A stretch of 63,992 bases of DNA, the filler included. It is 4 parts of 4 records of this genome, joined end to end, with 100 filler letters (N's around TTAATTAATTAA, not from the genome) between each part and the next. Parts side by side here need not be neighbours in the genome. Positions count along the whole stretch, not along the records: positions 1 to 21,045 come from SRR31147125_2077; 3 more parts are not named here. One strand, written 5' to 3'. A program made the translations under genes and the position numbers. The notes beneath the pieces are model-generated. The model was not told the origin of the DNA, did not search any database, and was given only the letters and a program-made list of their open reading frames with translations. Below, piece after piece: positions 3,187-34,816 of this stretch; the stretch's first letter is position 1, and each line of letters begins with the position of its first letter.

Positions 3187-3997
3187 TTGCTTACCTCCTA
3201 TGTATGGCTCAATCCAGGGCGGAGCGATCGGAGCAAAACCTCTCTTACCTCTTCCCTGAGAATAATTATCGCAGAGCAATTATTCACGGGACAGATCGGT
3301 TCACGACGCCGTGTACCTTGGAGAGTTGATCCGCGCATATTCAAGCCTCTGCGTCCGACCGTCTCCACACACACCGCAAAACCTCTATATATTGCCAGTG
3401 TTTGGATATTGAAGGGAAGAGACTGACTTTAGTCAAGCAGCGGCATTTGTACGGCTGTTGTGTGGTGATTTGGCGCACCACTATCTTTCGCTGATTATAC
3501 ATCAATCCCACCCAACCTTTACCCACCTGCCAAAATGTGATATTCTAACTCGACATTTTGGCAGGAATTTCACAAAAAAATATCCTAAAAAAAATAATAA
3601 TGCCGCTAATATATTCATCCAGAGACGGGGATCCTGAGAATTTCAACATGAAAGAGAAATATTTAATTGCCCTTGAAAATGCAACAATATGGAATAATCA
3701 ATTATTTCTTTCTGTAAAATGTGTGTATTTGTATCCTGTTCCTCAGGAATAGATTTGGAGGTACACTTTGCATATCATACACAATTCGACAACCTTTTAT
3801 TTTAATCGCTTTACAAACTTTCCGGTTAAGAAACAGGCCTGGTCGAAAGAGCCTCCTGTACCTGAATCGATCGACTTTGGGACAATCAGGTCTCTAATGA
3901 ATCGGATCGCATATTGAACATTACAAAAAGATAACAAACGTGACGATAACGTAAATAAAAGATATTCGCCCACCTATAAAAATTATCTCTTTATTGA

Positions 3998-4581
3998 TTA
4001 AAATTTCTTTTTTAAAGTATCTTTTACAAAGAGATCTTCAAGTCGCTTAGTTAAAGCTATCAATTTGGCGTCGAAATTTTTCGAATCCAGCAAAGAAAAA
4101 ATTGTATGTTCCCTGTAGGATCAATGATTAAATTAGACGCGATGCAAATCTCATCACGAGCCAAATCCGGTAGAACCTCTGGCGGCGCATAACTGGCTGA
4201 GATTTTACCGTCGCTATCCAGCAATATTGGAAAGGAAAGTTTCCGGGCATCTGCCCATCTAGCAGCGAGTTCCTTGCTTTCCTTTACATTAATGATAAGA
4301 ACCTGAACGTTACAAGATTTGTACTTTTGCCACAATGTTTCTAAATGCGGAGCCTCCGCATTGCAGAACGGTCACCAACTGGCTGCAAAATGGATAACAA
4401 CATACATGCCACGCAGATCCGAAAGAGCCAGCGTTTCGCCCTGGAGCGTTGCCAATTCAAACAAAGGAGCTTTTCCAGGATTCGGTTGTTTGTTTTCCTC
4501 TGCAAAACTGTTCATGTGGCCGAGCGCCGAAAGAAGCAGAATCGAGAGAATGTGAAGAAGACGGAAGATTATATTAGCCAT
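3998..4581 (-). CDS. TlpA/AhpC-TSA-family thioredoxin-fold selenoprotein (UxxC)
   Basis: Signal peptide, then APLFELATLQG...VVIHFAASW-UGA(4372-4374)-PFCNAEAPHLE in frame with the 4060-4335 ORF; probable 1-nt homopolymer deletion near 4096-4101 restores ...FFSLLDSKNFDAKL; AGGAG RBS. Confidence 0.85.
4344..4362 (-). promoter_or_regulatory. Candidate SECIS hairpin of the TlpA-like selenoprotein
   Basis: AAUGCGGA-GGC-UCCGCAUU stem-loop; the G-initiated loop starts 17 nt after the UGA. Confidence 0.7.
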
Positions 4582-4684
4582 AATCACACTCCTTATAATT
4601 ATGGTTTTTTTAGAATTAAAGTGAAAATATTTAGGATGTTGCGGTTCATAACCACAATTGTCATTTGATGATATATTCACACTT

Positions 4685-5497
4685 TTACCGTTGGCTTTTT
4701 TTAGCTCGAAAGTTAATTCCAACGGTCCCAAAAGCAGCGGCACTACTCGATTGAGGTGCACCGCTAAAGACATCTGCTCGCCAGGTAATCTCGAAATCGA
4801 CAAAACCAGCAGAGACAACTGCCGCCTGTAACTCTGCTTCCAGCAGAGCGCCGGCAATTCAGCCAGTCCACAATTCGATTTTTCGTTTGGCATCCGCTGA
4901 CACGGGTTTTTGCACCAGAATGTCGCCAATTTGCAGTCTTCCTGTCGGTTTGAGTACTCGTGCCATTTCCAGAAGCGTCGTGGATTTATCAGGGCTTAAA
5001 TTAAGTACGCCATTAGAGATAACCACATCCGCCCAACCATCTTCTACAGGTAAATCTTCCGCGTATCCGAAACGAAAATCCACATTAGTAATACCCGCCT
5101 CGACTCCAGCGTCTCGCGCCTTATCGAGCATCGTGGAAGTCATGTCAATGCCTACAACCCTGCCGTTTGGAGCGACTTTCCTGGCAGCGATCAAGCTATC
5201 AATTCCCGCACCACATCCTACATCAACAACTCGCTCGCCAGGCTTAATCTCTCCAAGACGAAACGGATTGCCTGTCCCGGCAAATGATTCAATAGAAGAT
5301 TCGGGAATTCCTTTTAGCCAATCCTCATCATAATCGAGCAAACGCGCGAGCGGTCTGCCCGTATGAAAATGAAATCCTTTTTGAGGTTCATTCGCGACCG
5401 CGTCATATTCTTCACTAATGGCATCCCGCAGCTCTCCTAACTCCAGGCCGAGCTCCGCGACCCTCTCAGTGATGTCTAATGATATTTGATTACTCAT
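4685..5497 (-). CDS. ArsM-like SAM-dependent methyltransferase, selenoprotein
   Basis: SAM motif VVDVGCGAGID; LWTG-UGA(4859-4861)-IAGALLEAEL aligns with ArsM xCxxGAL; frame stays open for 57 more codons to TAA at 4685. Confidence 0.88.
4831..4849 (-). promoter_or_regulatory. Candidate SECIS hairpin of the methyltransferase
   Basis: CUCUGCU-GGA-AGCAGAG, loop 17 nt after the UGA; a lower stem AUUGCCG/CGGCAGU can also form. Confidence 0.7.
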
Positions 5498-5734
5498 AGC
5501 GTTATCTCCATTCATGTAAAAATATCTGATACTTTGTAATTTATATGTCTAATATCTCGATTTCCTGCTTATCAAAAGCAGACATCCTGAACAAATCTCT
5601 TCACAAAAACATTATTTCCTGACCATTCTTACAATGATCCACATTTAAAGGAAATCTGGCACACTCGCGATTGGTAAAACCGATTTTAATTAAAACAACC
5701 ATTCCGCAGCAAAACGTAGGATTCACTTCTCTCA

Positions 5735-6271
5735 TCAACCTCCTACACTGTAACCTTTTTCGACAATTTTTTCGCCTTGTCGTTCCTTTGTCGTCGGACC
5801 ACCGAAAATCGCATTATAAACAAGTGAAGGGATACAGAAGTCAATTGTGCTGACTAGCAGGCCTACAATTGTAAGCGTTCCGCCCAGGATATAACCCGTA
5901 AACGTTGCACCCGAATGAAACGCCCAGGCTGTAACAATCAACCATACAGTTCCCAGGCCGCACGCGAAACGATTTGGCGCACCGCGCCGGGGCAAAAGAC
6001 GAGTATGGGTCAGGCGGCGAATGCCATAGTTATAGATGAAATCAAACGGGTGAACATGAAAGATAGCGCCCAACGCTGCAATGGGCGCCAACGTCAATAA
6101 TAACTTTGGCGAAGCGAATGCCGTTCCCAGGCCGGCCAGAACTGTGCATAGTGCGAAGGCAAGACGAAGCCATGATCCAACTTCAGCCAATGTGTCGTCA
6201 TCGAGGCCGACGAATCCCTGGACTTCCAGTCGACAACGTCTTGTCGCTGATACAACTTTTTTCATACTCAT
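5735..6271 (-). CDS. DUF4395-family membrane protein
   Basis: Four hydrophobic segments, P.RFACGLG and DFCIPS..Y motifs typical of DUF4395. Confidence 0.75.
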   Translation of the reverse strand: MSMKKVVSATRRCRLEVQGFVGLDDDTLAEVGSWLRLAFALCTVLAGLGTAFASPKLLLTLAPIAALGAIFHVHPFDFIYNYGIRRLTHTRLLPRRGAPNRFACGLGTVWLIVTAWAFHSGATFTGYILGGTLTIVGLLVSTIDFCIPSLVYNAIFGGPTTKERQGEKIVEKGYSVGG

Positions 6272-6786
6272 TCCTTTATAATTACTGCCTTATTTTTTGA
6301 ATTGCTATTATCATATTTAATATCAACTCTGGGTTCTGACAAACGACAAAAGTTGATCATTAATAGAATCAAAATCACATGGATTGAAAGTGAGAATGGT
6401 TGCAGTATAATATCATTCCGGGGGCGGAGATCGGGAGAAAATCTAAAAGGATTGAATGTAAAATTGCCGTTGGCAGTATAACATTGAAGGATAATTAATT
6501 ATTTCATCTTGCAGGAGGAATTTCAGCAACACAAGTCTCTTGCTTTCATCGTTTGTGTTTACATCTGTCAAGCCAGAGACCATCCCGATTATAGTCTGGA
6601 TCGATCCGTCAAGGAAATAAATGGAAACAACTGCCCAGGCAATTCCTGAGCAGCTGTTTTTGCTTATAAGAGGCTTTTCCCGTGATTTACTTTGTACAGG
6701 CAGGATTGGAGAGTACATGAAAGAATTACACAGAGAAAATACCAATCAGGGTAGGATTTTCAGGAAAAAAGAATGAATTGAAAAAA

Positions 6787-6834
6787 TGGCTGTACCAAAA
6801 AATCTGTTCCAAAAAAAACATATGATACAGCCAT
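6787..6834 (-). terminator. Possible terminator hairpin after the porin gene
   Basis: ATGGCTGTA...TACAGCCAT inverted repeat followed by a T-run on the minus strand; loop is long. Confidence 0.4.
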
Positions 6835-6847
6835 ATCATTTTACACT

Positions 6848-8071
6848 CTAAAAAAAGTAATAAGCACCGAGCAGCAATCTCAGGTTATTGACAAATTCAG
6901 CGTCCTCGACTTCACCCTTGCTATTCGTGGTTCCGTAGCTCGCTCCTGTGTATTCGCATTCTACTGCAAACCGGGTTTTACCCGAGTTCCACATGATACG
7001 AGGGGAAACACGATAAATCATATCAATTGAAAGCCCGCGACCCCAGGCATTTATTACATTTTCACTTGCACCCATATTCTTTGTCACACCTGCAAAACAG
7101 CCAAATCCTATCTTTTTACCACCGGAAACATCCGTCCATACGGAATAAACATTCGTTGGGATATATGTTTCTTCACCGGTATTTGTATCAACGGTTTCCG
7201 CGCCATACCCGCCAAGCATCAAATGATCTGTCAGATTTTGGCCGTAAACGCCTTCAACTTTCCATGTGAGTGATGGTAGATTAAACCTGGCATATCCAAG
7301 AAATGAAAGGCTGTTTACCGTTTCAGTTGTTTTATATCCGAGTGGTGTACTAAGACGAGGTGTCAGAGCTTTCCAATCTGCACCAAGTCCAAAGATCGTT
7401 TTTTCATTTTTCATCTGAACCTGCAGGTGCATATTGGGAATGGCCGAATTCCTCAAGTATATAGAGCTACCTCCACCAGGTCCGGTACTGGTAAAATCTC
7501 TCTGAGAGATAGCTGCTGCAATGATATTCAGATGTCCTGTGGAATGCGTTAACCGAACCTGTGGATTTCTTGAAAATGGTTGAAATGGAGCGCCTGTATT
7601 AAAAGAAACTGTTCCCGGGAAACAATCCGTCACAAACATGGGATGCCAGTATTGACCGATTAAAAGTGTATTCTGTTCCCATGTCATGGTTAAAAAGGCG
7701 TGACGCAGCCGAAATCCATTAACATCACTATTAGAATGACCAAAAAATGCGGCTTCGATCAGGCCACCTGTTTTTGCGCCAAATGCATCCGGACCGGTAA
7801 TGGTCCCCTTAAGCCGGGTTTGAATTGCAAGCATATTGAGATTTGCTTTTGCATTAATATCATCACCGTTTGGATCTTTGGATTCACCAACTGGATAGAG
7901 TAAAAAATGGCCTTCCCGTGCTGCCACTGTTTGTCTAGAATCAAACATAAGGTCCGTTTTCACAAAACCGCTAAATTTTATACCAAAATCTTTCTCCGTT
8001 GATTGGCCTGTTACCATACTTGTCAGGCAGATTGATATAAAGAAACAAAACATCACAAACTTTTTCATCAT
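6848..8071 (-). CDS. DcaP-like outer membrane porin
   Basis: Signal peptide, FSGFVKTD, RLRHAF, LLIGQYW, RNPQVR, C-terminal aromatic YYFF. Confidence 0.8.
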   Translation of the reverse strand: MMKKFVMFCFFISICLTSMVTGQSTEKDFGIKFSGFVKTDLMFDSRQTVAAREGHFLLYPVGESKDPNGDDINAKANLNMLAIQTRLKGTITGPDAFGAKTGGLIEAAFFGHSNSDVNGFRLRHAFLTMTWEQNTLLIGQYWHPMFVTDCFPGTVSFNTGAPFQPFSRNPQVRLTHSTGHLNIIAAAISQRDFTSTGPGGGSSIYLRNSAIPNMHLQVQMKNEKTIFGLGADWKALTPRLSTPLGYKTTETVNSLSFLGYARFNLPSLTWKVEGVYGQNLTDHLMLGGYGAETVDTNTGEETYIPTNVYSVWTDVSGGKKIGFGCFAGVTKNMGASENVINAWGRGLSIDMIYRVSPRIMWNSGKTRFAVECEYTGASYGTTNSKGEVEDAEFVNNLRLLLGAYYFF

Positions 8072-14976: not shown

Positions 14977-17412
14977 TTACTTTAAAATGATCAGTTTATT
15001 CATATCTACAAAGGCACCTGCTTCCATTATGTAGAAATATATTCCTGACGGTAACTCTTTTGTTTTGTATGGAATTTCATGACTTCCGGCACCATATTCC
15101 TTATCTGTGACAATATCTACTTTACGTCCTAAAATGTTATATAAAGTTATTTTTACTTTTTCTGCTTTTGCCAGGTTGAAACTGATGGTAGTAGATGAGT
15201 TAAAAGGATTGGGATAATTCGGCCTCAAACAATAAAGTCCGGAAAGTTGAGGAGGTTTTTCATCGGTAATATTTGTAATGGATAGATTTATATAAAATAT
15301 CCCCTGATAATTCGTACCTAAATATAACAAATGGTTCACAAGATCCCATTCTGTGGTTTGAATTATACCTGTGCTATATTCAGGATCTATATCGATCCAA
15401 CTTTCATTGTCACCATCCTTGATAAAAAGTCCCCGATCTCTAGTTATGGCGTAAATTCTATCCGGTGCCTGTGAATCAATGACAATTTTTATAAGATGAG
15501 ATAAACTCGTATTGAGTGATTGCCATGTTAGGCCACCGTCGCTGCTCTGATATACATCATTATCACAGGCGGCATAGATCGTAGTTGGGGATCCGGGAGC
15601 AAAGCACAGGTCCCGAACATAATTTCCTGCATCCTGAAGAGCCGTACTAACATTTTCCCAATTCATACCGCCATCTGCACTCCGGAACAATATACCTTTA
15701 TTCTCTGAATTTGTACTTATCTGTCCACCTGCAAATAAAATATTGGAATTCCCCGGAAAGACTGAAAACGTCGATATTGAACAATTTTGCAAAGAGGTTA
15801 TTTGTGTCCGGGTCCAGGTTTCTCCACCATCATGACTTTGACTTATCCCAATGACATTTTTATTTTCAATTTCATAGGATCCAAGAATATATATAATATC
15901 AGGATTATTCTTATCAAAGATTATTTTGCCGGGTGAAAGGCCACTATTCAATTCAAACCAATCGGAACCACCAACTGTGGTTTTATATAACTTGTACCCG
16001 GCACTTCAGCGGCCTCTTTGTATAATATATACAATCTCAGGAGATTGAGGATGAACCTCGATTTCAGGAATGGATAAACATGGATTTAAATTTTGCAAGG
16101 ATATCCAGGACTTGCCTGAATCCATTGATTTATAAAGAACATCTCTTACACTTGCATAAATTATCCTCGGATCAGATGATGTGATACCAATCGCACGAAT
16201 ATCTGCAGTAATGATACCGGAATTAACATAGCTCCATGTTCGACCGGCATTAAGGCTGCGACGAATTCCTTCTGAACCCGCAAAAAACAGGATATTGGGA
16301 TCAAAAGAATCAACTATTAATGCGTTACACGAACTCATTATATCATCCAGAATTATATCCCAATTTACACCACCATCTGTACTTTTAAAAACGCAGCTAT
16401 CATACCCTGCGTAAATAATATTTGAATTCATCGGATCAACGGCAAGCTCATATGCTTTGGCAGTTCCATTATTCTTTAACCAGCTTGAGCCACCATTTTC
16501 GCTTCGGTAAACAGCGTCTCTTGTACCTGCATAAATTTGTTCCGGATTCCGTAAATCTATTGTTAGGCTTGTAAGTTCTCCTGAAATTCCATCCGAAATA
16601 TCGACCCAGGTGCTTCCGCCATCTACGCTCTTACGTAACAAGGTATAAACCCAAACTGATTCATTTTCGAATTTTCTACGCATTCCACCTATATAAACAA
16701 TATTTGTATCTTCAGGACTTGCAGCAAGGCAGGTTACATGATTATATGTACTATCGACGTTAGGAATATCAAAGGAAACCCAGTTTATACCTCCATCACT
16801 ACTTTTTAGTAATCTGGAGCTTGTTATGGTTTCAGTTCGAGTCCGACATTGACCACTCATATAGATCAAATTGCTGTTGTTTGGATGAACGTAAAGCTCA
16901 AGAAAATTACAGAGCAAAGGTAAGGATATAGAGTGCCAGTCATAACCCCCATCAAAACTTTTATAGAATGAACCATGTTGAGAAACAGCGTATAATACGG
17001 AAGAATTAAAAGGATCCATTCTTATTGATGAAATATCATATAGCGGGAATTTTTGCGGCGGAGTTCCAAAAACAATGTTTGATTCGAGTTTTTCCCAGTT
17101 TTCGCCGCCATCCAAACTTTTATAAATCAGCGAAGTGGGGTGAACTAATGCATATAAAACCTGATGATCAGTTTGATCCATAATAAGCGTGCGCACATCG
17201 CCGCCCGCAGGGCCAATCTGATGCCAGGACCAATCATTGTCTTTCATAATAGGTAAATTTTGATGACCGTCTGAAAATGATGACCTTGCACCGGGGCGTG
17301 TCATTATATTTTCATTACTATGAGGTCGAAGGATTATTTGTGATGAGGACGAATTCATCAACACAATAAATAAACAAAATAATACTATTGTTATAAATGT
17401 TACTTTCATCAT
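14977..17412 (-). CDS. Secreted BNR/VPS10-like beta-propeller protein with NYPNPFN C-terminal sorting domain and in-frame UGA (probable Sec)
   Basis: Many S.DGG..W repeats in both ORFs; QRGR-UGA(16006-16008)-SAGYKLYKTTVGGSDW joins ORFs 16006-17412 and 14977-15951 in frame. Confidence 0.75.
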
Positions 17413-19896: not shown

Positions 19897-20297
19897 GAAA
19901 GTTATTTTAGTACCTTTCTTATGTTTTGTTGTTTTTTCACATAATCGGGACAGGGTGGCGCTTCATAACGCCGTTCCTACTACATCACCGGTGATACGAA
20001 TCTTATACCAGGATTGTTCAATTCAATCTTTTAGAACGTTATTTCGCATCCTGCTGAATACGAACCATGCCTGGCACACACACCGCATTTCAGCCGCCGT
20101 ACAATGAACTGTCAATTTTAGACCAATTGAAAGTTGACCACTGAATATTTCAAAACCACGGCGCTACTTGCAGTTGGCTGTAAATACAATATTACAATGC
20201 ACATCAAAAAATCTTGCAGAAAATTTAACAAATCTTTCTATGCAATTTATACTTTCTATTGGATGAACAGTAACCATCCCTTGAAAATGACATGAAA

Positions 20298-21045
20298 TTA
20301 GAATCCCATGGTAATATATTTATTGTTTTTAACTGCTTCGCACGGATTTCCTTTGTATAAATAAAACCGCCCCTCATTAATATCAATAAATGCTGTGCCA
20401 AGAGTTTGCCCTAAAATGTCTTCCTGAGGATGACGACAGGGAGAATATGGTTTTCTTTCATGAGAAGATAAAATGGATAACATAGAGTCTGGTTGAATAT
20501 TACTCATTTCAAGTTGATTTAATTTCTCATTAATCACAATGTAACGGGAAAGAGATGAGCTGCTCTTATATTCCTGATCCTGAAATTGGTAATCCTTCAT
20601 TTTTTCAAATAAAAGATGATTTGTGTGGAAATAAATCCCTTTGGGATGCTTTATCTCTGCTCTACCCGGAATAGTTTCAACCGATGCATATCTTTTTTCA
20701 TTAAATCCGGCAAGATGATGGTGATAAGGATAGGCGCGTGGTTCGAATGTGGCGATTTGAATGGCTTCCTTCAAATCTTTTGCTTCTAATATCGCCCGGC
20801 CAATAACATAGCGCGGAAGACCAATTTCTCTCTGCATGCTGCTGATATAGTTTGTGGTTTGGACAATTCCCCGGCTATTTAATGACGGTCCGTTACCGGT
20901 TATAATTCCCGGATAAACCAAAGAAATATAAGAAACACCCGAGGGCGGGATTACTTTTATTGTAAACATGATATCTTTATAGGCAGTATGACCATCTTCG
21001 TTGTGGAATAACCACATGTTTTTATCATTTTTGACGAAAATGCTG
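20298..21045 (-). CDS. C45-family autoproteolytic peptidase/acyltransferase (5' partial)
   Basis: HNED, G.SLNSRGI, HTNH, SS..R and GNPC motifs; frame open to the contig edge. Confidence 0.8.
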
Positions 21046-21145
21046 NNNNNNNNNNNNNNNNNNNNNNNNNNNNNNNNNNNNNNNNNNNNTTAATTAATTA
21101 ANNNNNNNNNNNNNNNNNNNNNNNNNNNNNNNNNNNNNNNNNNNN
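21046..21145. other. Artificial contig spacer
   Basis: N-run with central TTAATTAATTAA; composition changes across it. Confidence 0.98.
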
Positions 21146-21221
21146 TTTTTTATTATTTTAATAAATATGACACATATTTGACACATTTATCCTATATAAT
21201 ATATGCGTAGGAGGTTTTTAT

Positions 21222-22022
21222 ATGAAAAAAGTCATTTTTATATTTTTAATAAGTATTGCAGGATTATTACTAAGTTCATGTAGTAGTGACTATGACATGG
21301 GTTATGATTACGATGATGAAGGAGAAGTGCTAGCAACTTCAGAAAATGGAATACCCGAAAGACAAATTATTTATGAAGTTGATATTTCATTTGATGTTAA
21401 AGATTTAGAAGAAGCTTCAAATGATTTAAAAGATATGCTTGCATCAGATGAATGGTTTGATCAAGAGTCTCTATCAGATACAAGACATGCATATGTCATA
21501 CGTGTAAAAACAGATAGATTAGATGCCTTTATTGAAGATTTAAAAGATGAGTTTGTCCTAAGAAATTATGAGAAAGTTGGGACAGATGTTTCACTTGCAT
21601 ATCAAGATACATCAAATCAAATACTTGCGCTTGAATCACAATTAGAAAGATTGCTTGAACTCTATGATGATGCATCACTTTCTGATATGATACTCATCAA
21701 TCAACAAATATCAGATATCGAAGTGGAACTTCAATCACTTAATCATACCATCAACACATATGATTCACTTATTGAATATAGCCGTGTTGAACTTGATTTT
21801 TATGGCAGTAAAGTCACCTCACAATCACCGTTTTTTAACAGATTAGCCAATGGGTTTTTAAATGGCTTAAATGGACTTATTTTTGTGCTTGACCAATTGG
21901 TTATTGTGATAGCGACTATATTACCTTTTGGACTCGTTCTCGGTGGTATAGGTGGTGCGACATGGTTATATATTAAAAAGAAAAATCGTAATGACAAATC
22001 TAAACATACTAAATCTAAATAA
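21222..22022 (+). CDS. DUF4349-domain lipoprotein
   Basis: Lipobox-like LLSSC, coiled-coil DVSLAYQD...LERLLEL, C-terminal TM. Confidence 0.8.
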   Translation: MKKVIFIFLISIAGLLLSSCSSDYDMGYDYDDEGEVLATSENGIPERQIIYEVDISFDVKDLEEASNDLKDMLASDEWFDQESLSDTRHAYVIRVKTDRLDAFIEDLKDEFVLRNYEKVGTDVSLAYQDTSNQILALESQLERLLELYDDASLSDMILINQQISDIEVELQSLNHTINTYDSLIEYSRVELDFYGSKVTSQSPFFNRLANGFLNGLNGLIFVLDQLVIVIATILPFGLVLGGIGGATWLYIKKKNRNDKSKHTKSK

Positions 22023-22034
22023 ATAAGTTATAGA

Positions 22035-22066
22035 TGACCTAGTTCCACAAGTGACTAGGTCTTTTT
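22035..22066 (+). terminator. Rho-independent terminator
   Basis: GACCTAGT...ACTAGGTC followed by TTTTT. Confidence 0.7.
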
Positions 22067-22140
22067 ATATGATTTTAAAGGATTATTTTGATAACATATG
22101 CATGAATTAGTTTTAATTTCAAAATAATGGAGGATTTAAC

Positions 22141-23460
22141 ATGAATAAAGAAAAACAAATTAGTGTTGTTGGAGGTATATCTATACTCGCTGGCATTATG
22201 ATAGGTTCGGGTATATTTTTCTTAGGGGGTCAAATACTTGGACGTATCCAAGGATCACTTTGGTTATCACTTGCTGCATGGGCGGTTGGAGGTATTATCA
22301 CGCTTTTTTCAGGATTATCATATGCAGAACTAGGATCACTTTTCCCAGAAAATGGTGGATACTATGTTTATTTAAAAGAAGGGTATAATAAAAAAGTAGC
22401 ATTTTTATCTGGTTTTATGAATCTTGTTTTATCATCATCAGGTAGTATTGCATTACTTGCCATATTATTTGGTCAAGTCATGAGTAATATTTTTCCTGAA
22501 CTTGGATCATATATATCTATTGTTGCTATCGCTGCAATCATCTTATTAACCATAATTAATTATTTTGGTATTCAATTAGGTCAAGTTGTACAAATTGTAT
22601 TTATGGCAGCTAAACTCATACCGATTGTGATGATTATTGTGATGGGTATATTTATTGGTAAACAACCGATTGTTTCAACCTCAACACTTTCAAACTTATC
22701 ATTTTTTGAAGGTCTGGTTGCATTTGGATTTGCTGTTGTAGGTACACTTTGGGCATATGAAGGTTGGACAAATCTAAATGCTGTTGCTGGACAAATGAAG
22801 CATGCAAAAAAAGATTTACCAAAAGCCATGAGTATTGCTGTTGTTGGTGTTATGGTGATATATGTATTATTTATATTTTCACTTTATAGATTGGTTCAAT
22901 ATAGTGATTTATTAAGTGCACCTAATGGATGGTTTATTTTTAATGCAGCATATGTTTTATTTGGTGATACTGGACAATTACTAATCATGATATCAGTAGC
23001 GGTTAGTGTATTTGGTGCACTCAATGGTAGTGTATTGGTATTTCCTCGCGTTTATCAAAAGATGGCGAAAGATAAGTTGTTATTTAAAATATTTGCAAAA
23101 GAAGATAAAACATATAAAACGCCAGTATATACGTTACTCTTATCAGCAGCAATGTCTATTCTATTAATTATATTACCCTTTGATGTTGAAGCGTTGTTAA
23201 CTTTTGTCGTGTTTGCGGGATTAATCTTTAATACACTTATATTCATTGCTTTATTTAAATTTCGTAAAACAAAACCAGTTGAAAACTATCCGAGATATCA
23301 AGTTTTTGGTTATCCCTATATACCAGCTATCGCTATTTTTGGTATGTTATTACTATTAATTGCAACACTGATCGAAAGTTTCATACCTTCGATGATTGGT
23401 GTTGGTGTACTTATTGTTGGTTATGTGGTGATTCATTTCACAATAGGTCAATCATCTTAA
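22141..23460 (+). CDS. APC-family amino acid permease
   Basis: GIMIGSGIF, YAELGS.FP..GG.Y.Y, WAYEGW; about 12 TMs. Confidence 0.9.
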   Translation: MNKEKQISVVGGISILAGIMIGSGIFFLGGQILGRIQGSLWLSLAAWAVGGIITLFSGLSYAELGSLFPENGGYYVYLKEGYNKKVAFLSGFMNLVLSSSGSIALLAILFGQVMSNIFPELGSYISIVAIAAIILLTIINYFGIQLGQVVQIVFMAAKLIPIVMIIVMGIFIGKQPIVSTSTLSNLSFFEGLVAFGFAVVGTLWAYEGWTNLNAVAGQMKHAKKDLPKAMSIAVVGVMVIYVLFIFSLYRLVQYSDLLSAPNGWFIFNAAYVLFGDTGQLLIMISVAVSVFGALNGSVLVFPRVYQKMAKDKLLFKIFAKEDKTYKTPVYTLLLSAAMSILLIILPFDVEALLTFVVFAGLIFNTLIFIALFKFRKTKPVENYPRYQVFGYPYIPAIAIFGMLLLLIATLIESFIPSMIGVGVLIVGYVVIHFTIGQSS

Positions 23461-23551
23461 TTTGCAACATTCAATGATTCGTTGTAAAATAAGTGTATAT
23501 GAAAAATCCTCATACAGTTGAGGATTTTTTAATAGATGGGAAACTAAAAAG

Positions 23552-24892
23552 ATGGATATAAAAACATTTAATCAACTAAAAAAATATAGTGATGCAAATG
23601 GTGTTGCATCTGTCATTGATCATCGTATCCATATGTCATTAAATGCATATGGTTTATACGAGGAGCACGTTGATTTTGAAGTTAAAGATATTAATGATCA
23701 AGTGCGTCATGTGATGTCACATCTTTATACAAAAACAAATGAAACAAAACTTGGTAAAAAACTATTTGGTGATATCGCTGATATTAAATATGATCAGCAA
23801 TTAGGCTATTATAAACATTTATATGCTGGCTATGTTAAAGAAGGCAATTATAGAGAAATTGCTACTGCTGGTGGTATGGCAACTTGGTTATTTGCTGAGT
23901 TATTTCGTAAAAAACTAATAGACGGCGTCATTCATGTAAAACAAAATAAAGATAAAGATAGTGATATATTATTTAAATATGATATTTCATATTCAATCGA
24001 TGAAATAAAAGCAGGTGCTAAATCTAAATATTATCCTGTTGAAATGTCAGAAGTCCTAAATATTGTAAAACAAAAACCTGGCAAATACGCAGTGATTGGT
24101 AGCCCTAGTTTTATCATGTCCCTTCGACTTTTATGTGAAGAAGAACTTGTATTTAAATCTCGTATTAAATTTATGATTGGTCTTATCGTTAGGCATCATA
24201 AAAGTGCAAGATTCGCAGAATCTATTGCATGGCAAGTCGGTATTAAACCTGGACATTTAACATACATCGATTTTAGAAAACCAATACTCAATAAACCTGC
24301 TAGCCAATATGCTGTGCAATTAGAAGGATATAAAAATGGTCATTTAGAAAGAATTATTAAACCAATGCACATGTTTATTGATCAAGATTGGGGTGGCTAT
24401 TTTAAAGCAAGAGCTTCCGATTATTTAGATGATGTCTTTAATGAAACTGCTGATATTACTTTGGGTGATGCTTGGTTAGAGCAATATGATAATGACCCAT
24501 TGGGTACCAATGTGGTCATTACTAGAAATGAAACCATTGATAAACTCATCAAACAGGCTTTTAAGGATAATAGAGTATATCTTGAGCAACTTTCATCAAA
24601 ACAAGTAAGAGCAACACAAACATCGCATTATCGTCACACACATGATGAACTATCTTATCGTTTACTTAAATTAAAAAATCAACATCAGTGGTACCCAGTA
24701 AAAAGGGTAGAACCAAATGATCATATTTCTGATTTTAGAAAAAATGTTCAAGATTTTAGAGAAATGATACGAAATGACAGTCATACATACTATTTAAAAG
24801 CAAGACAAAATGGTGATTTTAGTATTTATAGAAATCAAATGATTAAATTACAAAGCGCATATAAAAAGCTATATCAAACAAAAAATAAATGA
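23552..24892 (+). CDS. FrhB/FdhB (coenzyme F420 hydrogenase beta subunit-like) family protein, Cys-depleted
   Basis: TAGGMATW...LIDGVIHV, AKSKYYPV, ADITLGDAW motifs. Confidence 0.75.
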   Translation: MDIKTFNQLKKYSDANGVASVIDHRIHMSLNAYGLYEEHVDFEVKDINDQVRHVMSHLYTKTNETKLGKKLFGDIADIKYDQQLGYYKHLYAGYVKEGNYREIATAGGMATWLFAELFRKKLIDGVIHVKQNKDKDSDILFKYDISYSIDEIKAGAKSKYYPVEMSEVLNIVKQKPGKYAVIGSPSFIMSLRLLCEEELVFKSRIKFMIGLIVRHHKSARFAESIAWQVGIKPGHLTYIDFRKPILNKPASQYAVQLEGYKNGHLERIIKPMHMFIDQDWGGYFKARASDYLDDVFNETADITLGDAWLEQYDNDPLGTNVVITRNETIDKLIKQAFKDNRVYLEQLSSKQVRATQTSHYRHTHDELSYRLLKLKNQHQWYPVKRVEPNDHISDFRKNVQDFREMIRNDSHTYYLKARQNGDFSIYRNQMIKLQSAYKKLYQTKNK

Positions 24893-24951
24893 GTCTTATA
24901 GATCGCATGAATCAGGTGTGATCTATTTTTTTATTTTTTTAATTAAGAGAC

Positions 24952-24980
24952 TTGACAACTTTTTAAAAATTTATTATATT
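24952..24980 (+). promoter_or_regulatory. Sigma70/SigA promoter of groESL
   Basis: TTGACA-17 nt-TATATT. Confidence 0.75.
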
Positions 24981-24984
24981 ATAA

Positions 24985-25011
24985 TTGGCAACCAAGTAAT
25001 AAGAGTGCCAA
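24985..25011 (+). promoter_or_regulatory. CIRCE element (HrcA operator)
   Basis: TTGGCAACC-N9-GAGTGCCAA versus consensus TTAGCACTC-N9-GAGTGCTAA, directly upstream of groES. Confidence 0.85.
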
Positions 25012-25038
25012 TAAATAAATATTCAAGGAGGAGTTTTC

Positions 25039-26940
<1,902 letters not shown>

Positions 26941-26948
26941 TAAAATAG

Positions 26949-26989
26949 AAGGAATAAAGCCAAGATGTTATCTTCTTTATTCCTTTTTT
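26949..26989 (+). terminator. Rho-independent terminator after groEL
   Basis: AAGGAATAAAG...CTTTATTCCTT plus T-run. Confidence 0.7.
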
Positions 26990-27016
26990 ATATGATATAA
27001 TGCATGCAGGTGATGA

Positions 27017-27559
27017 TTGATGATTGTATTAGTAGGCGCAAGCGCAAGTGGAAAAACAGAAATAGCAAAAATACTTTTTAACAAATATGGGTATAAAAAA
27101 TGCATAACAACAACTTCTAGAAGTCCGCGTAAAAACGAAGTAGATCATGTTGACTATCATTTTTTATCAAAAGAGAGATTTCAAGAGTTAATGGATAAAG
27201 ATGCATTTTTAGAAGTTTCAATTTACAACCATCATTATTATGGTTTTCAAAAGAAAGATGTGATGTATAAAGGTGTGGTAGTCCTTGATCCAAATGGAGC
27301 TAATGCCGTGATACGTGCAAACATCAAGGATGTCATGATTGTCTATGTGCATAGTGATAAAGATTTAAGAGAATCTAGAATGATTCAACGTGGAGATTGT
27401 AGGGAAGACATCAAAAAAAGACTAACATCTGATGATGAAACTTTTAAACCATCAAATATTAAGCGTATTGATTTAAGGATAGAAAATCATGAAATCGATA
27501 TTGAGTCTTTGGGGACCTATATTCATCAACAATATATACAAAGTAAAAAAGCATCATGA
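27017..27559 (+). CDS. gmk: Guanylate kinase
   Basis: GASASGKT P-loop, TTTSRSPR..E...DYHF, YYG. Confidence 0.85.
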   Translation: MMIVLVGASASGKTEIAKILFNKYGYKKCITTTSRSPRKNEVDHVDYHFLSKERFQELMDKDAFLEVSIYNHHYYGFQKKDVMYKGVVVLDPNGANAVIRANIKDVMIVYVHSDKDLRESRMIQRGDCREDIKKRLTSDDETFKPSNIKRIDLRIENHEIDIESLGTYIHQQYIQSKKAS

Positions 27560-27617
27560 GCTTCATGATGTTTTTTTTATGTTAAAATCTTACTATAAGT
27601 TGAAATGAGGCGATGTA

Positions 27618-28064
27618 ATGAGATATAAAGTAGATTCAATTGATGCATACATGAAGGCTATTCCAAAAGATAGAGTACGACCTATTAATCAGTTAAGAGA
27701 AGCTATTAAAAATAATTTACCAGAGGGATTTGAAGAGGTCTTACAATATGAAATGATATCATATATTATACCCTTATCAAGATATCCTAAAGGCTATCAT
27801 GTCACACCAAATACACCATTACCGTTTATATCACTTGCATCTCAAAAAGCAACGATTAATTTATATCATAATGGTATTTATGCAAGCCAATCATTACTTA
27901 CTTGGTTCAATGAAACATATAAGGAAATGTTTGGAAAAAAGCCAAATATGGGTAAATCTTGTATTAGATTTAAAGAAGTCAATGAGTTAACCATTGATTT
28001 AATAGCTCAATTGTGTACAAAAATGACTCCTCAGGATTTAATTGATCTATATGAAAATCGATAA
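27618..28064 (+). CDS. DUF1801 (YdhG-like) protein
   Basis: LP.GFEE, YP.GYH, ASQK..I.LY, MGKSCIRF. Confidence 0.85.
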   Translation: MRYKVDSIDAYMKAIPKDRVRPINQLREAIKNNLPEGFEEVLQYEMISYIIPLSRYPKGYHVTPNTPLPFISLASQKATINLYHNGIYASQSLLTWFNETYKEMFGKKPNMGKSCIRFKEVNELTIDLIAQLCTKMTPQDLIDLYENR

Positions 28065-28163
28065 ATATTAAAGTATACAGCGATGTATGCTTTTATTTTA
28101 TGTATTTTTTAACTAGTTTCATGTTAAACTGTTAAAGGAATAAATAGAAAAGAGAAACATTTT

Positions 28164-29369
28164 ATGAAAAAGAATAAAACCATTATTATACTTATTATCT
28201 TATTTTTATTGAATCAGATTGCTGCAAATGTAGGGCATCCTGTTACACCAGCTTTTGTAAAAAGTTTAGGCATCGAAGATTATATGTTTGGTGTGTTTTT
28301 TGCATTCATGGCTGCAGGATTGACTATAGGTGGTCTTATATTTGGCTATTTAGGGGATCGTTACAAAAAGAAATATATGATTATGATTGGATATGTGATA
28401 TATGCGATTGCTCAATTTGGTTTTGGGTATGCAGAAAATCAATATGCAATGATCTTTTTTAGATTCTTAGCTGGACTTGGTGCAGCAGCAACGATTACTT
28501 TATCAACAGCTTTAGTGATTGCACATACAACAGATAAAAATCGTACTAAAATTTTAGGATTTGTTGCAGCAGCAATGACACTTGGTGCATCAATTGGATA
28601 TTATTTAGGTGGTCAATTAGGTGCGAATCAATGGTTCATTGATTTACTTGGGACAAGTGAATTAAAATATATTTTCCTTATCCAAAGTGGACTCAATATC
28701 TTTGTTGGAATTTTAGTTTATTTCTTTTTACAAAATGAGCGTGTTCTTATTCAAAATAACAAAGATAATTTCTTTAAATCCATGCGTACGATTACACAAT
28801 TAAAACCGACATTACTTATATTTTTAGGTTCACTCATGCTATTTACCATGGGTAAAATTAATACTGAAAAATATTTAGATGTATATTTTAATGACTTAGG
28901 ATATTCAAGTGGTGATATTGGTACTTTTGTATTAGTCACAGGGATTGTATCACTATCAGCAAGTATCTTTGTCGTACCATTATTTAACAAAGTTAAAAAT
29001 AAAATTGCTACGATGGCATTGATGCATTTACTTGCAGCGTTCATCATTATTTATGTGTTTAGATCAGAAGTGTTTATGACATCAATTTATAGTGTTTATA
29101 TGATATATATTGTCATACGAACCGTTTATCAGCCCCTTGAGCAATCATATATATCGAATCATGCATCAGATGGTAAATACGCAATGATTATGGGTGTTAG
29201 ACAGTCGTTTTTATCACTTGGTATGATTATTGGTCCACTCTTAGGAGGATTAATATATCAAATATTACCCAGATATTTATTTGATTCATCTGCGATATTA
29301 TTTATATTAAGTGGTGTTTGCTTAGTTGTAGTCATCATGATGATTAAAAAACAACCACAAATTGACTAA
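28164..29369 (+). CDS. MFS transporter (drug:H+ antiporter-like)
   Basis: GYLGDRY.KK motif A, RFLAG, G.IIGPLLGG; 12 TMs. Confidence 0.88.
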   Translation: MKKNKTIIILIILFLLNQIAANVGHPVTPAFVKSLGIEDYMFGVFFAFMAAGLTIGGLIFGYLGDRYKKKYMIMIGYVIYAIAQFGFGYAENQYAMIFFRFLAGLGAAATITLSTALVIAHTTDKNRTKILGFVAAAMTLGASIGYYLGGQLGANQWFIDLLGTSELKYIFLIQSGLNIFVGILVYFFLQNERVLIQNNKDNFFKSMRTITQLKPTLLIFLGSLMLFTMGKINTEKYLDVYFNDLGYSSGDIGTFVLVTGIVSLSASIFVVPLFNKVKNKIATMALMHLLAAFIIIYVFRSEVFMTSIYSVYMIYIVIRTVYQPLEQSYISNHASDGKYAMIMGVRQSFLSLGMIIGPLLGGLIYQILPRYLFDSSAILFILSGVCLVVVIMMIKKQPQID

Positions 29370-29460
29370 AAGTGCGATATAACGCACTTTTTTTATTGAG
29401 TGAGATGTTGTATCACATTAATGATCATGCATATGATATGATATAATAAACATAACATAG

Positions 29461-29480
29461 ATATCATATAAATATGATAT
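29461..29480. promoter_or_regulatory. Palindromic putative operator upstream of gnd
   Basis: Perfect ATATCATAT-AA-ATATGATAT between a TATAAT -10 box and the RBS. Confidence 0.5.
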
Positions 29481-29495
29481 ACAAGGAGGATATAT

Positions 29496-30389
29496 ATGAA
29501 AATCAGATTAATTGGACTTGGAAAAATGGGTGCAAATATCGCACTTAATTTAAAAGATCATGGCCATGAAGTTTATGGGTTTGATTTATCCGAATCAGTA
29601 AGAAATAAATTAAATCGCGAAGGTGTAAAAACTTTTGCTAGTCTAGATAAATGTTTAGAAGATGATGGCGAACGAAAAGTTATTTGGATGTTGGTGCCCA
29701 ATCAATTTGTTGATCAAGTGATCAACGATATGTTGCCACACTTAAATGCTAAAGATATTGTGATTGATGCGGGTAATTCAAACTTTAATCGATCAATGAT
29801 AAGATATCGCACTTTAAAAGATAAAGGTATCGATTTTATTGATGTAGGAACATCAGGTGGTACTTATGGTGCAAGAAATGGCGCATGTCTCATGGCTGGT
29901 GGAGAACGTGAAGTCGTAGAATTTGTTGAACAAGTATTTATTGATGTAGCTGTTAAAGATGGATATGCTTATACAGGAAAACCAGGCTCTGGTCATTTTG
30001 TTAAAATGGTACATAATGGTATTGAATATGGCATGATGCAAGCAATGGCAGAGGGTTTTGATTTGCTTGAAGCATCACCATTTGAGCTTGACTATGTCGA
30101 TATTACAAAAATGTGGAACCATGGATCAATTATTGAATCAAATCTTATGGGTTATATTCATGAAGCATTTAAAAAAGATGAAAAACTTGATGAAATTGCA
30201 GGTCGTGTTGATGATTCAGGTGAAGGTATGTGGACTATTGAAGAAGCATTAAAATATAAGGTTGCAATGCCTGTGATCACACAATCATTATTCTCAAGAT
30301 ATAAATCAAGAGATGAAAGTAAGTTCGCCGAAAAAGTTGTAGCGGCTATGAGAAAGGAATTCGGTGGTCACGCCGTTTATAAGAAAAAA
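29496..30389 (+). CDS. gnd: 6-phosphogluconate dehydrogenase, decarboxylating (short YqeC type); in frame with zwf as assembled
   Basis: IGLGKMG, IDAGNS, DVGTSGG, GHFVKMVHNGIEYG, VDDSGEG, R..FGGH. Confidence 0.92.
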
Positions 30390-31754
30390 ATGAAAGATAT
30401 CGTATTTGTCATATTTGGATCAACAGGAGATTTAACATCAAGAAAATTATTACCTGCGATTTCAAAACTATATCAAAAAAATCAAATCACAAAAAATATT
30501 AAAGTGGTTGCTGTTGGTCGAAGAGATTATGACACGAATCAATACTTAGATTATGTTGTATCCACCGATAATAACAAACTTGATAAATCAATCCTTGAAT
30601 CTTTTGTTACTTATTATAAAATGCAAATCACTGAACCAAGTGATTATAAAGGATTGAAAACGTATCTTGATGAGTTTTCAAACCAAGAGACAAAACAATT
30701 ATTTTATTTAGCGATTGCACCTCAATTTTTTGATGATGTCGCAAAATACTTAAACCAAGTATCACTGATTGAAAAAGGAAATGAACATCATAGATTAATA
30801 TTTGAAAAACCTTTTGGGCATAATTTAGAAAGTGCAAAAAAAATCAATCAGATGTTATGGCAATTCTTTGATGAAAATCAAATATATCGAATTGACCACT
30901 ACTTGGGTAAAGAAATGATTCAAAATATTATGATGCTTCGTTTTGCAAATCGTATTTTTGAAGAAGTATGGTATAACCGCACCATTAAAAATATCAAAAT
31001 AATTGCTAAAGAAACAGATGGTATTTTAGGTCGTGCTGGTTATTATGATGAATCCGGTGCTTTAAAGGATATGGTTCAATCACATTTATTACAAATATTA
31101 AGTTTAATTGCGATGGAACCACCCGTATCATATTTTAGTGATGATGTTAAAAATGAAAAAGTTGAAGTTTTAAAACACCTTAGATTTGATAAAGACAATC
31201 TAATATTTGGTCAATATGATGGTTATAAAGACGAAAAAGGTATTGATCAAACATCAGATACAGAGACATTTGTTTATTTAAAAACGTTTGTAGAAACACC
31301 ACGGTTTAAAGGCGTACCATTTTATTTAATGACTGGTAAAAAACTAGATATTAAAGAATCACTTGTTATTGTTGAGTTTGAAGAAACAACTGAACAAAGA
31401 AAATGGGACTTACCACTTTCAACAAATAAGCTATATATAAAAATTGCACCTGAAGATGGTTTTGGGCTTTCACTAAATAGTAAAGTACCAGGGTTACGTG
31501 ATGATGTAGAATCAGTTGAAATGGAATATTGTATTGCTTGCAAAGCTTTTGGAAATATGACGGAAGCTTATGAAAAACTCTTGTTAGATATTAGTGAAGG
31601 ACATAAAACACTATTTACAAGATGGGATGAAATTGAATTATCATGGCAATTTATTGATGACATTAAAAAACATCAATCAAAACCTGTCATTTATAAAGAT
31701 TTAGATGACTTAAAGTCATTGATTAAACAAGTAGAAGAAGGAATGAAATCATGA
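30390..31754 (+). CDS. zwf: Glucose-6-phosphate 1-dehydrogenase
   Basis: GSTGDL..RKL.P, EKPFG, YRIDHYLGKE, DMVQSHLLQ. Confidence 0.93.
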   Translation: MKDIVFVIFGSTGDLTSRKLLPAISKLYQKNQITKNIKVVAVGRRDYDTNQYLDYVVSTDNNKLDKSILESFVTYYKMQITEPSDYKGLKTYLDEFSNQETKQLFYLAIAPQFFDDVAKYLNQVSLIEKGNEHHRLIFEKPFGHNLESAKKINQMLWQFFDENQIYRIDHYLGKEMIQNIMMLRFANRIFEEVWYNRTIKNIKIIAKETDGILGRAGYYDESGALKDMVQSHLLQILSLIAMEPPVSYFSDDVKNEKVEVLKHLRFDKDNLIFGQYDGYKDEKGIDQTSDTETFVYLKTFVETPRFKGVPFYLMTGKKLDIKESLVIVEFEETTEQRKWDLPLSTNKLYIKIAPEDGFGLSLNSKVPGLRDDVESVEMEYCIACKAFGNMTEAYEKLLLDISEGHKTLFTRWDEIELSWQFIDDIKKHQSKPVIYKDLDDLKSLIKQVEEGMKS

Positions 31755-32374
31755 AATATTATGACGTTACAATGAAAATCAGTCCAAGTATTCAAGTGTA
31801 TAAGAATGATCCAGCAAAAATACCGGTATTTGAAAATGCAAACAATCATGATATAGGAACAACACATGAAACAGTTGTTAAAATGAATGTGCATACTGGG
31901 ACACACTTAGATTTTCCATTACATATGATTAAAAATGGAAAAACTTCTGATACTTATGATTTTAAGAAATACATCAGAGAAGTGAAAGTTTTTGATTTAA
32001 CCCAAGTTAAAGAAGAAATAACTTTAAATGATATTCAAGATTTAGATATTCAAATCAATGATTTTGTATTTTTTAAAACACAAAACAGTTTTGAAGATAC
32101 TTTTAATTTTAAATTTGTATTTGTCAGAGAAGACGCAGCAAAATATTTAAGTGAAATAGGTATTGCTGGTGTTGGTGTTGATGGTTTAGGTATTGAACGT
32201 GATCAAAAAGGTCATCCTACACATTTATATTTAATGCATAAAGATATTGATATTATTGAAGGATTACGTTTAAAAGATATAAATCCTGGGACATATATGA
32301 TGTATGGTCAAGCGATTCCTTTAGAAGGACTTGATGCATGCCCAATGAGTATCGTTTTAGCGAGTGATGATTAG
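31751..32374 (+). CDS. Cyclase-family (kynurenine formamidase-like) metal hydrolase
   Basis: HTGTHLD.P.H, VGVD, IIEGL; ATGA overlap with the zwf stop. Confidence 0.88.
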   Translation: MKYYDVTMKISPSIQVYKNDPAKIPVFENANNHDIGTTHETVVKMNVHTGTHLDFPLHMIKNGKTSDTYDFKKYIREVKVFDLTQVKEEITLNDIQDLDIQINDFVFFKTQNSFEDTFNFKFVFVREDAAKYLSEIGIAGVGVDGLGIERDQKGHPTHLYLMHKDIDIIEGLRLKDINPGTYMMYGQAIPLEGLDACPMSIVLASDD

Positions 32375-32879: not shown

Positions 32880-32881
32880 AC

Positions 32882-34700: not shown

Positions 34701-34720
34701 AAAAAGATATAATAATCACA

Positions 34721-34778
34721 GGGAATGAACGTCTCCCTAAGTCTTATGACTTAAACCGCGACAGCTAATGACTTCTAC
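34721..34778 (+). ncRNA. Fluoride riboswitch (crcB motif)
   Basis: GGGAAUGAAC..CUCCC...UAAACCGC...GCUAAUGACUUCUAC matches the fluoride aptamer; TTGACA/TATAAT upstream. Confidence 0.85.
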
Positions 34779-34806
34779 AACATTTTTTGTTGTAGAATTT
34801 TTTTTT
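34773..34806 (+). terminator. Riboswitch expression-platform terminator
   Basis: TTCTACAACA...TGTTGTAGAA plus T-run; the 5' arm overlaps the aptamer 3' end. Confidence 0.8.
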
Positions 34807-34816
34807 GGAGGATATT

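Follow-up and report, generated by a model that had tools for sequence, protein, structure and literature searches.

A probable selenocysteine-decoded sister of the ArsM methyltransferases with a possible sulfur- or selenium-type substrate

We analysed a methyltransferase gene on the minus strand at 4685..5497 of a stretch of DNA of 63,992 nucleotides (about 64 kb; hereafter the window), which consists of parts of four records of one genome joined end to end. An earlier note, made from the sequence alone, had read this gene as an ArsM-like enzyme with selenocysteine (Sec) as its only catalytic chalcogen residue. The gene runs from an ATG at 5497..5495 to a TAA at 4687..4685 and comprises 270 codons and the stop, with the predicted Sec as residue 213. 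A GGAG ribosome-binding motif read from the sequence at 5506..5509 (minus strand) lies 8 nt 5' of this ATG, and the tblastn matches of two relatives (L001 and L003) start at residue 1 counted from it; a second possible ATG is at 5515. The frame holds a single TGA, at 4861..4859, between ...KRKIELWTG and IAGALLEAELQ..., and 57 further codons are open after it, up to the terminal TAA. The protein ends ...FRAKKSQR directly before that stop, with neither a tail nor a second Sec. Codons H43-F44-H45 of the motif GFHFHTGR, at 5363..5371 (minus strand), belong to an invariant motif whose counterpart in canonical ArsM, by alignment, is the N-terminal CC (Cys44-type) site. In agreement with the earlier note, the sequence has the open frame and the motifs LWTG-UGA-IAGALL, FAGTGNP, ISNGVLNL and GFHFHTGR.

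The UGA at 4859..4861 (minus strand) is read as Sec (U213), the counterpart of Cys224 in CmArsM, from an alignment to ArsM structures, from 120 homologs and from related loci. A search with the read-through protein returned the 120 closest database proteins, at 60–83% identity. At the position of the UGA, 101 of these carry cysteine, 13 end one residue before it, four have tryptophan, one arginine and one tyrosine. A gene caller that meets a Sec codon would give the end seen in the 13 proteins, and the four tryptophan entries are taken as read-through under another code. For related DNA we used 80 loci from species-representative genomes, whose best tblastn segments are 62–81% identical to the window protein and which span KSB1, Chloroflexota/Anaerolineae, Gemmatimonadota, Rubrobacteraceae, Acidobacteriota, Desulfobacterales and others, at least six phyla. 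The motif LW.[GN]x[IV]AG occurs 80 times in 78 of these loci and is found in neither L030 nor L078. Its codon is TGA in 74 occurrences and TGC in six, one of the latter belonging to a paralog in L055 that is a canonical ArsM with ISNCV, so that 74 TGA stand against five TGC within the subfamily. Twelve of the 57 codons after the UGA encode residues invariant among 53 homologs. The earlier note had expected its reading to fall if homologs ended at this codon or lacked cysteine or TGA there; cysteine in 101 of 120 proteins and TGA at 74 of 80 motif occurrences are the opposite pattern, and just the 13 proteins end at the codon.

Downstream of the UGA lies a hairpin of the bacterial selenocysteine insertion sequence (SECIS) type, GCUCUGCU-GGA-AGCAGAGU, at 4831..4849 (minus strand). 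Its 8-bp stem starts 10 nt past the UGA, and its GGA loop, at 4841..4839, begins 17 nt past it, the distance given by the earlier note. Folded on its own, the hairpin is no better than shuffles (z = -1.10, 75 nt), and the case for it therefore rests on relatives. Across 75 TGA forms (74 from the loci and the window itself), all eight pairs are kept in 66 and seven of eight in nine, with register and distance fixed; the six TGC forms keep just three to five of the eight pairs. In the alignment used for this comparison (A2), 98.4% of 568 cells pair, compared with 32–52% when the 3' partner is slid by one to three columns, and the covariation score was reached by none of 500 shuffles. Two pairs vary on both sides, with pair 21-29 occurring as GC in 61 cases, UA in six and CG in three. 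Some of this covariation joins a non-synonymous change in the 3' arm (Ala to Glu) to a synonymous change of a Leu codon in the 5' arm. An Rfam search in evalue mode of positions 3500..7000 returned no SECIS family and one sub-threshold match to an unrelated long non-coding RNA. As judged from these alignments, the hairpin is a predicted SECIS specific to TGA forms that would recode UGA213.

The gene that follows carries a UGA of its own. This 3' neighbour, at 4060..4581 (minus strand), is a TlpA/ResA-like AhpC-TSA/Redoxin gene by Pfam and NCBIfam. Its product, a secreted protein, starts with a hydrophobic leader and contains the motif W-U-PF-C. An in-frame TGA at 4374..4372 falls inside the CxxC motif, and a second 8-bp hairpin, AUGCGGAG-GCU-CUCCGCAU at 4362..4344, begins 11 nt past it (z = -1.16 when folded as a single sequence). 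The terminal stop of this gene is also a TGA (4062..4060), with a TAA directly after. It is a second selenoprotein gene, and since it has both a UGA in a CxxC motif and its own hairpin, the organism appears to decode Sec. Taken together with the homologs and the hairpin, we regard the methyltransferase locus as almost certainly a real Sec-decoded gene.

Comparison with known families places the predicted protein beside ArsM. Pfam gave generic S-adenosylmethionine (SAM) methyltransferase domains only (Methyltransf_31/25/11, with Methyltransf_31 at 105 bits). The best four NCBIfam matches are ArsM-type models, and every one scores below its cut-off: NF041537, the ArsM/AhpD selenoprotein (232.6 bits, cut-off 510), NF008823, arsenite methyltransferase (216.0 bits, cut-off 263), NF041536 (214 bits, cut-off 575) and NF047649 (211.2 bits, cut-off 460, in a match that covers residues 19–259). 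By sequence, the best solved relatives are CrArsM (E = 4.9e-22) and CmArsM (E = 1e-19). An AlphaFold (AF2) model built from a 53-sequence alignment has a pLDDT of 91.3, and its best fold matches in the PDB are CmArsM 4fr0 (TMq 0.72), CrArsM 5evj and human AS3MT 8xt7. The protein thus combines a class I SAM-binding Rossmann domain and the N- and C-terminal domains typical of ArsM, and hhalign against 23 canonical ArsMs gave probability 100 and E = 1e-77, which bears out the ArsM-like assignment of the earlier note. Fold, domain order and SAM motifs are alike in the two groups; the xGCxxGAL site of ArsM is kept as GU-IAGAL, and the FAGxGNP and ISNxVLNL motifs are recognisable.

The differences from ArsM are concentrated at its cysteines. 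HMMER alignment to CmArsM and CrArsM pairs T75 with C72, G163 with C174 and U213 with C224, and hhalign puts H43/F44 of GFHFHTGR on the N-terminal CC columns, in a gapped, low-confidence stretch. Residues F42, H43, F44, H45, T46 and G47 are invariant among the 53 sequences, T75 and G163 are each present in 119 of the 120 close homologs, and C213 is the sole invariant cysteine of the 53-sequence set. The window protein has one cysteine, C94 in SAM motif I, which is not conserved and is Ser in the consensus. The family thus differs from ArsM in having HFH for CC, Thr for C72 and Gly for C174, and it also has its own conserved C-terminus (GAPQSSSAAxFGTxGINFRARK) and no ars gene context. The ArsM criterion set out in the methods of PMC5552862 asks for at least three of four conserved cysteines (C44, C72, C174 and C224 of CmArsM), whereas here a single one of these positions, that of C224, is retained, with Sec in place of Cys. 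By this criterion and by the NF008823 cut-off, the protein as predicted belongs to a sister family of ArsM and not to ArsM. The earlier note had found no cysteine at the first two of the three ArsM positions that it considered and U at the third, and had read Sec as the only such residue of the enzyme; both points stand, the second for conserved residues.

The canonical multi-Cys As(III) mechanism is unlikely here because the equivalents of C72 and C174 are Thr and Gly and the sole cysteine of the window protein is not conserved. We conclude, as the earlier note did, that this mechanism very probably does not apply, a view that the near-invariance of Thr and Gly and the lack of ars genes in the context of relatives (described below) also favour. 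From an exhaustive HMMER search we took cluster representatives (50% identity) and sorted the best 150 by their residues at the three aligned positions. Of these, 53 are C-C-C and about 90 are [T/V/M]-G-[C or a chain end at this codon]; the intermediates are one S-C-C and one S-C with no residue aligned at 213. The representatives ending at the codon are all in the x-G-C/U class, a count from which truncated canonical forms would be missing because of their low scores. In these alignments, the loss of three ArsM cysteine positions is the property of a large family and not of one gene. One locus, L055, has a canonical C-C-C ArsM-type paralog (ISNCV, TGC) about 4 kb from a Sec form (636 and 4940), and the two families therefore coexist.

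The rarity or novelty implied by the earlier note did not hold up, given about 90 x-G-C/U members among the best 150 representatives, and ArsM-type enzymes with Sec at this site have been on record since 2008. In the portion available of the selenoproteome survey based on Global Ocean Sampling (GOS) data by Zhang and Gladyshev (2008; PMC2398784), the selenoprotein families include "arsenite S-adenosylmethyltransferase (PRK11873)". The accessible text of Peng et al. (2016; PMC5029168) reports an arsenite methyltransferase selenoprotein family in 39 organisms. Two reviews (PMC9312934 and PMC13188914), in the sections available, give the family with the motif UxxG under PRK11873/NF008823, and the second, from 2026, adds NF047649, NF041536 and NF041537, with Haft and Tolstoy 2025 as the reference. 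The catalogued arsenite (S-adenosyl)methyltransferase selenoproteins, from marine metagenomes and the 39 organisms, have Sec at the same UxxG (U-I-A-G) site. They are filed under NF008823, whose cut-off the window protein misses, and may overlap with the single-chalcogen class, the excerpts available being silent on whether they retain the other cysteines.

Among the listed models, NF047649 ("methyltransferase/UXPK-star double selenoprotein") is ArsM-like with Sec at UxxG, as in the window protein, and differs in a C-terminal U-x-P-K-stop with a second Sec, which the window protein lacks along with a score near the cut-off. NF041537 and NF041536 describe ArsM-AhpD and ArsM-DUF2284 fusions with an extra Sec; they are matched only by the methyltransferase part, and the window protein, at 270 residues, has no extra domain. 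The literature searched, in its accessible portions, contains no statement of a Sec/Cys class without the other cysteines, no assigned substrate and no tail-cysteine pattern of the kind described next; Haft and Tolstoy 2025 may cover part of this, and a Haft 2022 preprint makes no mention of ArsM or methyltransferase.

Sec and Cys forms of the family differ in their C-termini. Among the 74 Sec forms, 23 have no extension, as in the window protein, and 44 have a short tail (..EAEWxxALAALxC[EA]xP) that includes a conserved cysteine (43 found by script and L002 by eye; examples are L003 5637 and L036 5598). Four more have the cysteine tail followed by a TusA domain, and three have a tail without cysteine. 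The tail cysteine is present in 48 of 74 Sec forms compared with one of 101 close Cys forms (P0019, which was noticed by eye after the script had returned no case) and none of the five subfamily TGC loci, counts that take no account of phylogenetic kinship. It also occurs in four of the five W/Y read-through entries. TusA-fused Sec forms retain the tail cysteine, and TusA-fused Cys forms are without it. This pattern suggests that the tail may form a Se-S bond with the active site, in which case Sec213 would act covalently or in redox chemistry. The tail ..ALxCExP of Sec relatives may also be the cysteine counterpart of the C-terminal UXPK of NF047649.

Fusions to other domains recur across the family. 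By length class, 21 of the 101 close Cys forms are TusA fusions, and PF01206 is listed among the homologs; in the related loci, seven of the 80 motif hits are of TusA length, comprising four of the 74 TGA forms and three TGC forms. Among 22 long distant representatives, seven have an N-terminal DUF2652, three a C-terminal TusA, two MerC and one DsbA/thioredoxin. Most entries of the DUF2652-fused sub-branch (P0127–P0129, P0133, P0134 and P0147) end at the Sec codon. In other branches MerC is C-terminal (P0150 and P0167) and DsbA/thioredoxin is N-terminal (P0169).

For the gene neighbourhoods of relatives, we ran Pfam on 273 open reading frames (ORFs), up to two per side, at 78 loci. OsmC was found in 19 loci, mostly directly upstream and on the same strand (for example, L036 4378–4971), an ArsR-type helix-turn-helix domain fused to rhodanese in 14, and MFS transporters in 13. 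DsrE was found in six loci by Pfam and in 13 by BLAST clustering. A fusion of rhodanese and metallo-beta-lactamase occurred in five loci, a layout that we take to be that of persulfide dioxygenase-rhodanese fusions. SQR/FCSD-like flavoproteins were present in two loci and TauE in one. ArsB, ACR3, ArsC, ArsA and ArsD were not listed among the 273 heuristically picked ORFs, and the flanks of the gene in the window gave no match to an ars transport or reduction family. Association of arsM with ars genes (arsR with arsB or ACR3, arsC and others) is usual, not obligatory. Two single-linkage neighbour clusters, 4 and 6, were discarded as wrong frames of an OsmC gene, the first clustering having been polluted by antisense frames.

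In the window, the 5' neighbour of the methyltransferase is a DUF4395 membrane protein gene at 5735..6271 (minus strand; PF14340, 58 bits), and the other flanking genes encode a PAS histidine kinase and a porin-like protein. When the window neighbours were compared by tblastn with the 80 loci, DUF4395 was found in one (L003), the Trx-like selenoprotein in one (L001) and the kinase, weakly, in six; the porin-like protein had no match in this set. A redoxin homolog (AhpC-TSA) comes after the methyltransferase in L001, and a DUF4395 homolog precedes the second methyltransferase copy in L003. The gene order of the window is shared just with these closest KSB1 relatives. In L003 (KSB1), the two Sec-methyltransferase paralogs (5637 and 9602) are separated by about 4 kb, and an SQR/FCSD-like flavoprotein is encoded in the interval. 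A promoter scan of the window gave five promoter-like sites, fewer than the shuffle mean of 6.4. Terminator-like sites numbered seven against a shuffle mean of 2.4, with six on the minus strand inside ORFs (one in the methyltransferase) or upstream of the cluster, and we considered them unusable.

On this evidence, the protein would be a cytoplasmic SAM-dependent methyltransferase in which UGA213 is recoded to Sec via the hairpin 10 nt downstream. Sec213 would occupy the spot where Cys224 of ArsM holds As(III) beside the methyl group of SAM. The three other ArsM cysteine positions appear to be replaced family-wide, CC by His-Phe-His, C72 by Thr and C174 by Gly, and the enzyme would for this reason offer just one chalcogen ligand. 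A soft, thiophilic substrate atom could be bound covalently to the selenolate (a thiolate in Cys forms), possibly steered by His43 and His45; SAM would methylate the bound atom and a thiol would release the product. The substrate might be sulfane sulfur, persulfide, sulfide or selenide supplied by TusA, DsrE or rhodanese-type carriers, with products of the methanethiol or methylselenol type. We put forward this explanation as a whole, a Sec-decoded sister of ArsM with a sulfur- or selenium-type (S/Se) substrate, tentatively and as rather less than probable.

Reactive S/Se species rank as the likeliest physiological substrate because the strongest fusion and neighbour signals are the sulfur carriers TusA, DsrE and rhodanese; canonical arsenite handling appears less likely than these. 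This choice of substrate is also tentative, and we would not call it probable. More doubtful, although possible, is its fullest form, a new chalcogen methyltransferase in which sulfane sulfur or selenium is passed from TusA, DsrE or rhodanese onto Sec213 (Cys elsewhere), methylated by SAM as an enzyme-bound Se-S(e) and freed as methanethiol or methylselenol, by the Sec-linked tail cysteine where one is present. As far as the available descriptions go, MddH, MddA and MddM are H2S and methanethiol S-methyltransferases (PMC11445057 and PMC12904073), and MddH-type enzymes offer a possible functional analogue, by analogy of description, in which SAM-dependent sulfide or thiol methylation serves as detoxification. 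MddH is of the UbiE family (COG2226) and MddA is a membrane protein, and in those descriptions neither is reported with a catalytic Cys/Sec or an ArsM-like C-terminal domain. MddH was considered as a relative and set aside; it is described as UbiE-like, and the accessible text of its paper makes no mention of ArsM.

Several observations weigh against a Sec-dependent methyltransferase of S/Se species. The closest characterised homologs are all arsenic enzymes, and we infer the substrate class throughout. The window protein has neither the tail cysteine nor a TusA domain, and TusA, DsrE and rhodanese are not among its own neighbours in the window. The sulfur context is taken over from relatives at 62–81% identity, which weakens its transfer to the window protein. 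Neighbourhoods are also heterogeneous, with a single locus each sharing the DUF4395 or Trx-like neighbour of the window, and the neighbour ORFs were picked heuristically, many being without a Pfam match and some on the wrong strand. Metal-linked partners occur as well, with HMA P-type ATPases in two of the 78 loci, CusF in one and MerC in two of the 22 long representatives. With respect to Sec decoding, a scan of the 64-kb window found no tRNA, and selA, selB and selD were not among the ORFs scanned in it.

Several of these points favour an alternative in which the enzyme is a non-canonical arsenic (or Sb/Te) methyltransferase, its single selenolate, with His43 and His45, binding As(III), MAs(III) or a thiol-conjugated arsenical, and external thiols or thioredoxin serving for reduction. 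The nearest relatives by sequence and fold are ArsM and AS3MT, U213 is equivalent to C224, an As(III) ligand in the best-matching ArsM structures, the invariant HFH falls at the CC site, and JGI names many homologs "arsenite methyltransferase". A precedent that also counts against an S/Se substrate is TtArsM (TTC0109 of Thermus thermophilus HB27; PMC8649762), described in the available part of the source as an As(III) methyltransferase with one cysteine and two histidines. This is a model for a His-assisted, single-chalcogen site, and since it exists, loss of cysteines alone does not exclude arsenic methylation. By that same partial description, which is the basis of the comparison, the sole cysteine of TtArsM, C77, lies in the N-terminal half and is not the C224 equivalent, and the enzyme has no Sec. 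The arsenic alternative must further account for one conserved cysteine position of four where at least three are asked (PMC5552862, in the part available), for an NF008823 score of 216 below the cut-off of 263, for the lack of an ars transport or reduction family among the 273 neighbour ORFs and the window neighbours, and for the presence of sulfur-carrier fusions and neighbours instead. We consider it unlikely, and it is the best placed of the alternatives to an S/Se substrate.

An alternative of another kind would make Sec213 (Cys elsewhere) a redox switch or regulatory residue of an enzyme whose substrate is an ordinary metabolite unrelated to the chalcogen residue. The OsmC genes of 19 loci and the Trx/AhpC-type neighbours suggest an oxidative-stress setting in keeping with this, and the generic methyltransferase Pfam models match well. 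Against this, the residue does not vary and corresponds by homology to a cysteine that binds substrate in ArsM, and the retention of costly Sec and a conserved SECIS across at least six phyla argues for catalysis, which leaves a regulatory role quite improbable.

His/Cys zinc sites are established in alkyl transfer of the MetE, MT2 and farnesyltransferase type. By comparison with these, His43, His45 and Sec213 could hold zinc or another metal, and sulfide or a small thiol would be activated there for SAM-dependent S-methylation, with Sec as a permanent metal ligand in place of a covalent carrier. All three positions are invariant (the last as C/U), and HFH replaces the CC site, which is near the active site in ArsM. 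A tail cysteine found almost exclusively in Sec forms fits Se-S redox or exchange better than a fixed ligand, and no metal-site model match was obtained; we regard such a site as very improbable. The weakest alternative, that the TGA is a real stop giving a truncated protein of 212 residues or a pseudogene with a relic frame downstream, draws on the 13 of 120 entries that standard gene callers end there and on the lack of visible Sec machinery in the 64-kb window, and it is close to refuted already by 57 open, conserved codons alignable with full-length Cys homologs, by TGA at the same codon 74 times among related loci, accompanied by a covarying hairpin missing from TGC forms, and by the adjoining second UGA-containing redox gene.

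Returning to the Sec-decoded sister of ArsM, its annotation has practical consequences. Of the 120 closest entries, 13 have been cut short at the UGA by gene callers, and many homologs of full length bear the label "arsenite methyltransferase" from JGI pipelines. Surveys of arsM that do not check cysteines could be inflated, given a family that keeps one of four catalytic Cys positions (none as Cys in Sec forms) and falls short of the ArsM cut-off of NCBI. If the proteins are chalcogen methyltransferases, many of the genes called "arsM" in metagenomes of Chloroflexota, Gemmatimonadota, Acidobacteriota and KSB1 would not be arsenic genes, and the family would represent a new biological route to volatile methylated sulfur and selenium. 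A widespread family, in at least six phyla, whose one invariant Cys/Sec sits beside SAM lends itself readily to work with sulfide, persulfide, selenide and arsenicals. The Sec form dominates the nearest species-level genomes and the tail cysteine is almost Sec-only, which together provide a testable case of a Sec/Cys swap reshaping an active site.

Elsewhere in the window, we noted features separate from the methyltransferase locus. At 25313..26940 (plus strand), downstream of groES (25039..25323), groEL is apparently frameshifted: its first ~45 residues are in frame from about 25328, the frame is lost near 25460 and the main ORF resumes at 25528 (model position 67), a break that could be a sequencing error or a pseudogene. 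These genes fall in a block of about 16 kb (20001..36000) with 30–32% G+C, positive GC skew and most ORFs on the plus strand, in surroundings of 35–46% G+C and negative skew. Among its genes are groESL, zwf-gnd, MFS genes and one for an amino-acid transporter, and either a genomic island or a chimeric assembly could account for the block. Several proteins (14977..15951, 42740..44323, 46791..47525 and 55093..55815) include type IX secretion sorting tails and a PorV/PorQ-family gene product. These features, and the best methyltransferase matches to KSB1 metagenome-assembled genomes, suggest an FCB-group-like or KSB1-like host.

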